This document shows, one piece after another, positions 50,825 to 51,152 of a stretch of 64,000 nucleotides of DNA. This DNA is from Escherichia coli (GTDB lineage Bacteria > Pseudomonadota > Gammaproteobacteria > Enterobacterales > Enterobacteriaceae), in the NCBI RefSeq assembly GCF_045037415.1, contig NZ_CP173438.1; one strand, 5' to 3'. The notes under the pieces are model-generated. The model ran no database searches and was not told the origin of the DNA. It was given only the letters and a program-made list of their open reading frames with translations. The position numbers were made by a program, and so were the translations under genes. Position 1 is the stretch's first letter; the number at the start of each line of letters is the position of its first letter.

Positions 50825-50851
50825 ATGGTCTTCCTTTTTTTTGCATCTTAA

Positions 50852-50874
50852 TTGATGTATCTCAAATGCATCTT
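50852..50874. promoter_or_regulatory. NsrR operator in the hmp promoter
   Basis: TTGATGTATCTCAAATGCATCTT (reverse complement AAGATGCATTTGAGATACATCAA), an imperfect inverted repeat 28 bp upstream of the hmp start, matching the recalled NsrR site. Confidence 0.7.
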
Positions 50875-51018
50875 ATAAAAAATAGCCCTGCAATGTAAAT
50901 GGTTCTTTGGTGTTTTTCAGAAAGAATGTGATGAAGTGAAAAATTTGCATCACAAACCTGAAAAGAAATCCGTTTCCGGTTGCAAGCTCTTTATTCTCCA
51001 AAGCCTTGCGTAGCCTGA

Positions 51019-51034
51019 AGGTAATCGTTTGCGT
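51019..51034. promoter_or_regulatory. PurR operator-like PUR box in the glyA promoter region
   Basis: AGGTAATCGTTTGCGT (reverse complement ACGCAAACGATTACCT) partially matches the PUR-box consensus; about 120 bp upstream of the glyA ATG. Confidence 0.55.
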
Positions 51035-51152
51035 AAATTCCTTTGTCAAGACCTGTTATCGCACAATGATTCGGTTATACTGTTCGCCGTTGTCCAACAG
51101 GACCGCCTATAAAGGCCAAAAATTTTATTGTTAGCTGAGTCAGGAGATGCGG

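Follow-up and report, generated by a model that had tools for sequence, protein, structure and literature searches.

The genes hmp and glyA lie back to back in the window (the whole 64-kb stretch of Escherichia coli DNA that was analyzed), with hmp, a gene of nitric oxide detoxification, on the minus strand and glyA, a gene of one-carbon metabolism, on the plus strand. Their start codons, at 50824 and 51153, enclose a spacer of 328 bp (50825..51152), which is the size that the initial annotation had given for it. At an identity of at least 95%, this spacer was single-copy in 5,425 of 5,426 complete E. coli genomes, and it is part of the core E. coli chromosome. The corresponding spacer of MG1655 (NC_000913.3, 2685508..2685834) is the same locus with all sites identical, the window having one additional T in a T-run of the hmp leader; for window positions 50843..51153, the MG1655 coordinate equals 2685507 + (51153 − window coordinate). 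Read on the hmp strand, the T-run is a run of A located shortly before the hmp Shine-Dalgarno sequence, and the polymorphism in its length sits between a weak NsrR half-site and that Shine-Dalgarno sequence. The exact 76-mer carrying the 8-T allele of the window was present in 1,419 of 5,418 E. coli genomes, the remainder differing at one position; the 8-T allele is a minority form in E. coli. The hmp-glyA region as a whole is a textbook divergent control region of E. coli that is fully known already, and the features that we placed in it are collected in the table.

Features of the hmp-glyA locus, in window coordinates; hexamers are as predicted or proposed.
Feature	Coordinates	Strand	Sequence or product	Basis
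hmp coding sequence	49634..50824	−	396 aa, flavohaemoglobin / NO dioxygenase	ORF; length and position as MG1655 b2552
T-run, hmp leader	50835..50842		8 T (7 T in MG1655)	Alignment
Second, weak NsrR half-site	50839..50849	−	AAGATGCAAAA	CFT073 table; 7.5 bits with half-site matrix
NsrR operator, 11-1-11	50852..50874	−	TTGATGTATCTCAAATGCATCTT; hmp strand AAGATGCATTTGAGATACATCAA	Motif match and conservation
FNR-like box	50852..50865		TTGATgtatCTCAA	One mismatch to TTGAT-N4-ATCAA
hmp −10 hexamer (predicted)	50870..50875	−	TAAGAT	Promoter scan; conserved block
hmp −35 hexamer (predicted)	50894..50899	−	TTTACA	Promoter scan; conservation
Candidate MetR site, hmp-proximal	50937..50949		TGAAAAATTTGCA	One mismatch to TGAANNTNNTTCA on minus strand
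Candidate MetR site, glyA-proximal	50959..50971		TGAAAAGAAATCC	Two mismatches to TGAANNTNNTTCA
Conserved block upstream of PUR box	50998..51008		AAAGCCTTGCG	80 to 100% identity across species
PurR operator (PUR box)	51019..51034	+	AGGTAATCGTTTGCGT	Published ChIP-chip motif; matrix rank 2
Conserved block with −35-like TTGTCA	51043..51053	+	TTGTCAAGACC	Promoter scan and conservation
glyA −10 candidate	51076..51081	+	TATACT	Nearly invariant in 56 species
glyA leader end with Shine-Dalgarno sequence	51130..51152	+	GTTAGCTGAGTCAGGAGATGCGG	At least 80% identity at every position, most invariant, in 56 spacers
glyA coding sequence	51153..52406	+	417 aa, serine hydroxymethyltransferase	ORF; MG1655 b2551 is 1254 nt

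Conservation was assessed on loci obtained by scanning a genome collection with a pattern made of glyA codons 6 to 14, which is independent of the sites under test. The scan returned 120 loci, 55 of which had hmp as the divergent upstream neighbor; all 55 belonged to the Enterobacterales, with genera that included Citrobacter, Enterobacter, Kluyvera, Pantoea, Erwinia, and Serratia as well as Yersinia, Pectobacterium, Dickeya, Hafnia, Budvicia, and Rahnella. These 55 loci and the window make up the 56 spacers referred to below, and the spacer length in the 55 was mostly 300 to 330 bp. With the same glyA anchor, a divergent hmp upstream of glyA was not found in the loci of Vibrio, Photobacterium, Moritella, and Idiomarina. 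The footprint across the set resolved into separate conserved blocks, namely, the NsrR operator with the hmp −10, the hmp −35, a pair of MetR-like sites, the PUR box, and the TATACT hexamer upstream of glyA.

At the hmp end of the spacer, the initial annotation had noted a long imperfect inverted repeat matching the NsrR operator that makes hmp responsive to nitric oxide (NO). The 23-mer at this position, TTGATGTATCTCAAATGCATCTT, agrees at every base with the entry for hmp in Table 4 of a ChIP-seq study of NsrR in strain CFT073, where it has a PatSer ln P value of −18.22 against the authors' cutoff of −14.28 and where an NsrR peak was recorded between glyA and hmp (−log10 P value = 32.08, 3.79-fold enrichment) (PMC5320621). 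We scanned the window with a palindromized matrix built from 25 other distinct published sites, with the hmp site excluded; the operator ranked first among 127,956 window positions (17.8 bits), with the next locus at 12.5 bits. Its proximal arm, AAGATGCATTT, also scored higher (15.8 bits) than any other half-site of the window. The half-sites given for hmp in the CFT073 study are AAGATGCATTT and AAGATGCAAAA, which correspond to window positions 50874..50864 and 50849..50839 on the minus strand, and single half-sites have been accepted as sufficient in published work (PMC5320621). The second of these belongs to a direct repeat in which TGCATCTTA occurs twice, and within the 56 spacers it was found in Escherichia only.

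The symmetry of the operator was a different matter. Its two arms are complementary at 7 of 11 positions, a level for which the window gives a chance rate of 3.1 repeats per 328 bp, and six such repeats occur in the spacer; the inverted repeat was absent from the output of a repeat search seeded with 6 nt. The self-complementarity of the site is not clearly above chance, and it is the motif match and the cross-species conservation that carry the evidence. Of the earlier description, then, the operator stands at exactly the bases proposed for it, and the inverted repeat as such does not clearly exceed chance.

A promoter scan predicted TTTACA-18-TAAGAT as the hmp promoter, which overlaps the NsrR operator in such a way that five of the six bases of the −10 hexamer lie inside it. 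The TTTACA hexamer showed no variation among the 28 closer species and 90 to 100% identity across all 56. Transcription of hmp would start near 50863, and the operator would span about −11 to +12 of that predicted start. In the mechanism that we propose, NsrR, an iron-sulfur repressor of the Rrf2 family, would bind the 23-bp operator as a dimer over the predicted −10 and the predicted start. With five of the six bases of the −10 and the predicted start covered in this way, RNA polymerase should be blocked, presumably by steric occlusion. NO would then damage the NsrR cluster, NsrR would be released, and hmp would be transcribed; both this mechanism and the responsiveness of hmp to NO via NsrR are drawn from the literature.

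On the glyA side, the 16-mer AGGTAATCGTTTGCGT fits the 16-bp motif ACGNAAACGTTTGCNT with its central CG. The same 16 letters are given as the motif for glyA in Table 1 of a ChIP-chip study of PurR, in which the log2 enrichment at glyA was 2.08 with adenine and 1.13 without (PMC3159470), and RegulonDB grades the glyA PurR site as "confirmed" (RegulonDB evidence paper). With a matrix built from 27 other published sites, from which the glyA site was excluded, the PUR box scored 21.4 bits and ranked second in the 64-kb window, behind the purL operator. Across the 56 spacers, its right half, CGTTTGCGT, was nearly invariant and CGTTTGCGTAAA was essentially invariant. The initial annotation had called the sequence PUR-box-like, which understates what it is: the site is the curated PurR operator of glyA.

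Two further matches of the PurR matrix lie outside the spacer. The top match in the window, ACGAAACCGTTTGCGT at 41006..41021 on the minus strand (22.9 bits), is the published purL operator (PMC3159470) and is located 77 bp upstream of an open reading frame of 1,295 aa (41098..44985). The third-best match, TTGAAATCGTTTGCAT at 49168..49183 (12 to 14 bits), falls within the 3' end of a response-regulator open reading frame (47754..49190) and precedes the start of glnB (49251) by 68 bp; glnB has been published as a target of PurR and was reported missing in the ChIP-chip study (PMC3159470). The PUR boxes of purL and the other members of the pur regulon have the same 16-bp motif with a central CG as the glyA box, but the left half of the glyA box is weaker (AGGTAATC), and the box scores 21.4 bits against 22.9 bits for purL.

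For glyA, the promoter scan proposed TTGTCA-16-AATGAT, from which transcription would start near 51077. This pair is doubtful: AATGAT is poorly conserved, and a TATACT located 6 bp downstream is nearly invariant. The distance between the TTGTCA hexamer and the conserved TATACT is 27 bp, so that these two are not standard partner hexamers. The conserved block TTGTCAAGACC, to which TTGTCA belongs, may be the −35 of a second promoter together with AATGAT (51065..51070), or it may be the site of another protein. With TATACT as the −10, transcription of glyA would start near 51088, and the center of the PUR box would then fall near −61. On the same assumption, the glyA box would precede the −35 position by about 18 bp, whereas the boxes of the pur regulon lie over the core promoter. 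PurR, which belongs to the LacI family, would bind the PUR box together with hypoxanthine or guanine and cause a modest repression of glyA when purines are plentiful. In the work of Steiert from 1990, the repression of glyA by PurR was reportedly only about two-fold. From a PUR box that would be upstream of the −35, with the MetR sites on one side and the core promoter on the other, PurR appears likelier to interfere with upstream activation than with the binding of polymerase.

Both operators were found in all 56 spacers. The NsrR site scored 17.2 to 31.4 bits, against a 99th percentile of 13.3 bits in shuffled sequences, and lay 15 to 78 bp (mostly 25 to 30 bp) from the hmp ATG; the PUR box scored 14.9 to 23.1 bits, against a 99th percentile of 10.2 bits, and lay 94 to 136 bp from the glyA ATG in 54 of the 56. 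We used these values to weigh the reading that one or both motif matches arose by chance in an AT-rich spacer and have no regulatory role. Such a reading would suit the bare inverted repeat, of which about three per 328 bp are expected at 7 of 11 complementary positions and which the repeat search missed, but it has to contend with leave-one-out ranks of 1 and 2 among about 128,000 positions, with the conservation of both sites in position and above the shuffle 99th percentile in every spacer, and with the occupancy of both in published in vivo experiments. We give it practically no credence; the matrix ranks, the conservation, and the published ChIP data effectively refute it. The checks that the initial annotation had suggested, motif scans and a comparison with RegulonDB and the reference, thus came out in favor of both sites: the NsrR and PurR scans gave ranks 1 and 2 in the window with scores above threshold, the PurR site has its confirmed grade, and neither site is located elsewhere in the MG1655 reference. 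The pairing of hmp with glyA and the two operators are ancestral to the Enterobacterales.

Within this conserved arrangement, the NsrR operator of Escherichia is the weakest. The hmp operators of other Enterobacterales (Enterobacter, Kluyvera, Pantoea, Serratia, Yersinia, etc.) have the same proximal arm as that of E. coli and the same distance to the hmp ATG, but they mostly have an A/T-only center, TTTAAAAT, where E. coli has TTTGAGAT, and the distal arm reads GAGATACATCAA in E. coli in contrast to AAAATACATCTT in operators of the Enterobacter type. The operators of E. coli and E. albertii were the lowest scoring of the 56 (17.2 bits versus 20 to 31 bits elsewhere), and the changes sit in the distal arm, the same arm that forms the FNR box. 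A weak operator in E. coli fits the modest ChIP enrichment at hmp, which was 3.79-fold compared with 9.65 for ytfE and 12.0 for hcp (PMC5320621). The operators of ytfE and hcp, the strongest NsrR targets of E. coli, share with that of hmp the 11-1-11 arrangement and the proximal half-site AAGATGCATTT. However, the ytfE operator is almost perfectly palindromic (PatSer ln P value of −25.13), whereas the distal arm of the hmp operator is degenerate (TTGATGTATCT) and doubles as an FNR box.

The whole of the FNR-like box, TTGATgtatCTCAA, is contained in the NsrR operator, in its distal (promoter-distal) arm. The background of FNR-like sites with two or fewer mismatches was 0.42 per 328 bp over the whole window. 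A box at this level of similarity was present in 7 of the 56 spacers, all from Escherichia or Citrobacter, with 3 to 5 mismatches in the others. FNR is named in the literature as a repressor of hmp, and at the nested box it would add oxygen-dependent repression. The center of the box would fall at about +5.5 of the predicted hmp start. The position of the FNR box at hmp in the work of Cruz-Ramos from 2002 is said to fit this value. The limited spread of the FNR box at hmp agrees with an earlier comparative report (Rodionov 2005). In a genome-wide study of FNR, the hmp site was predicted and gave no ChIP-seq peak, and it was regarded as a "silent" site that is possibly masked by other proteins; hmp expression was nevertheless altered in an fnr mutant, and earlier in vitro work favors FNR binding (Myers 2013). 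Because it would occupy the same DNA, NsrR is a candidate for the protein that would mask FNR at hmp.

The same observations could be read the other way around, with the 23-mer being primarily an FNR site whose likeness to an NsrR operator is incidental and with hmp responding to NO through the inactivation of FNR by NO. The single mismatch of TTGATgtatCTCAA to the FNR consensus is in keeping with this reading, as are the changed expression of hmp in the fnr mutant (Myers 2013) and earlier work, cited in the literature, that supports FNR binding and NO sensing at hmp. However, the ChIP-seq peak at hmp was obtained for NsrR (PMC5320621) and none was obtained for FNR (Myers 2013), the letters conserved across the 56 species track the NsrR palindrome while an FNR-like box with two or fewer mismatches occurs in only 7, and the proximal arm AAGATGCATTT, which lies beyond the FNR box, tops the half-site scan of the window. 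We consider a primary FNR site very unlikely indeed and regard the 23-mer as an NsrR operator within which an FNR-like box is nested.

Between the two promoters, two candidate MetR sites are arranged in tandem 22 bp apart, about two helical turns. The cross-species footprint showed conserved ends at both, TGA and GCA at the hmp-proximal site and TGAA and TC at the glyA-proximal site, and a tandem MetR-like pair was found in 38 of the 56 spacers compared with 47 of 1,120 shuffled sequences. A secondary source places two sites of MetR, a LysR-type regulator, between hmp and glyA, and according to the literature MetR activates glyA and modulates hmp in the opposite direction via homocysteine. Judged by their sequence, the two candidates are most likely these MetR sites. 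MetR, which would act from the two tandem sites, is the sole regulator reported for both hmp and glyA. The arrangement resembles that of the divergent metE-metR spacer, which likewise contains two TGAA-N5-TTCA-like sites 22 bp apart. The MetR sites of metE abut the −35 (centers at −63 and −41), whereas the candidates described here sit further out, at roughly −145 and −123 from the predicted glyA start and −80 and −102 from the predicted hmp start.

The remaining conserved block, AAAGCCTTGCG, just upstream of the PUR box, gave no match to the consensus patterns of MetR, FNR, Fur, NarL/P, and CRP. Scans of the entire spacer with the Fur consensus, the NarL/NarP heptamer, and the CRP consensus gave nothing above the window background; a weak control of hmp by Fur is mentioned in the literature. 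An Rfam search of the spacer at a permissive E value returned only a meaningless miRNA match (E value = 0.57) and hence no known RNA element.

We then considered the relationship between the two operators, since the initial annotation had stated that two unrelated regulators share one short intergenic region. Both sites do lie in one spacer of 328 bp, but the centers of the NsrR operator and the PUR box are 163 bp apart and each belongs to a separate promoter; the sharing is therefore positional and not mechanistic. The predicted starts of hmp and glyA are about 225 bp apart. A functional coupling, in which NsrR and PurR would each affect the target of the other and nitrosative stress would be integrated with purine supply, might be suggested by the presence of both operators in one spacer whose length and arrangement are kept across the Enterobacterales and by the reported role of MetR as a link between hmp and glyA. 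The 163 bp between the centers argue against this, as does the position of each operator at its own promoter with a conserved and separate −35 and −10. Moreover, cross-regulation by NsrR or PurR is not reported in the literature that we examined, and in the ChIP tables the peak of NsrR is attributed to hmp and that of PurR to glyA (PMC5320621, PMC3159470). We judge such coupling to be very improbable. Our preferred reading, to which we assign a probability of about 0.95, is that the spacer contains two back-to-back sigma-70 promoters, each with its own repressor operator, and MetR sites between them that are shared.

A separate observation concerns the translation-initiation region of glyA. 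Strong conservation at the end of the glyA leader, GTTAGCTGAGTCAGGAGATGCGG, runs on into codons 1 to 10 of glyA (51130..51182 overall), with a same-codon identity of 0.96 compared with roughly 0.5 to 0.75 downstream, and the rare TTA codon at Leu2 is invariant. The rest of the glyA leader and the whole of the hmp leader drift freely. The possibility of a structured glyA leader RNA was considered and rejected, as RNAalifold on 55 sequences gave −2 kcal/mol and no credible consensus. No Rfam family corresponds to the initiation region, and the literature searched contained nothing specific on a link of E. coli glyA to a small RNA or Hfq. The ordinary reading of the constraint is an optimized ribosome-binding site of a very highly expressed gene; that positions −23 to +30 of glyA form the docking site of an undescribed posttranscriptional regulator, either a small RNA or an RNA-binding protein, strikes us as unlikely. 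The region also contains an in-frame ATG at 51147 (ATGCGGATG, 51147..51152), which precedes the annotated glyA start by two codons and is kept in all species. Its use as the glyA start is unlikely because it directly abuts the Shine-Dalgarno sequence; it makes mechanical callers of open reading frames begin glyA six bases early.

The discovery value of these results is small, as the spacer is among the best-characterized divergent control regions of E. coli and both operators are in RegulonDB-grade data sets. Their value is mainly that of a positive control, in which two operators were placed to the exact base from raw sequence. The translation-initiation region of glyA is under an unusually strict constraint. 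A further, lesser possibility concerns the weak operator of E. coli and E. albertii: in Escherichia, an ancestral NsrR palindrome that was nearly perfect may have had its distal arm remodeled into an FNR box. If this is true, the remodeling of the distal arm traded NsrR affinity for oxygen control.
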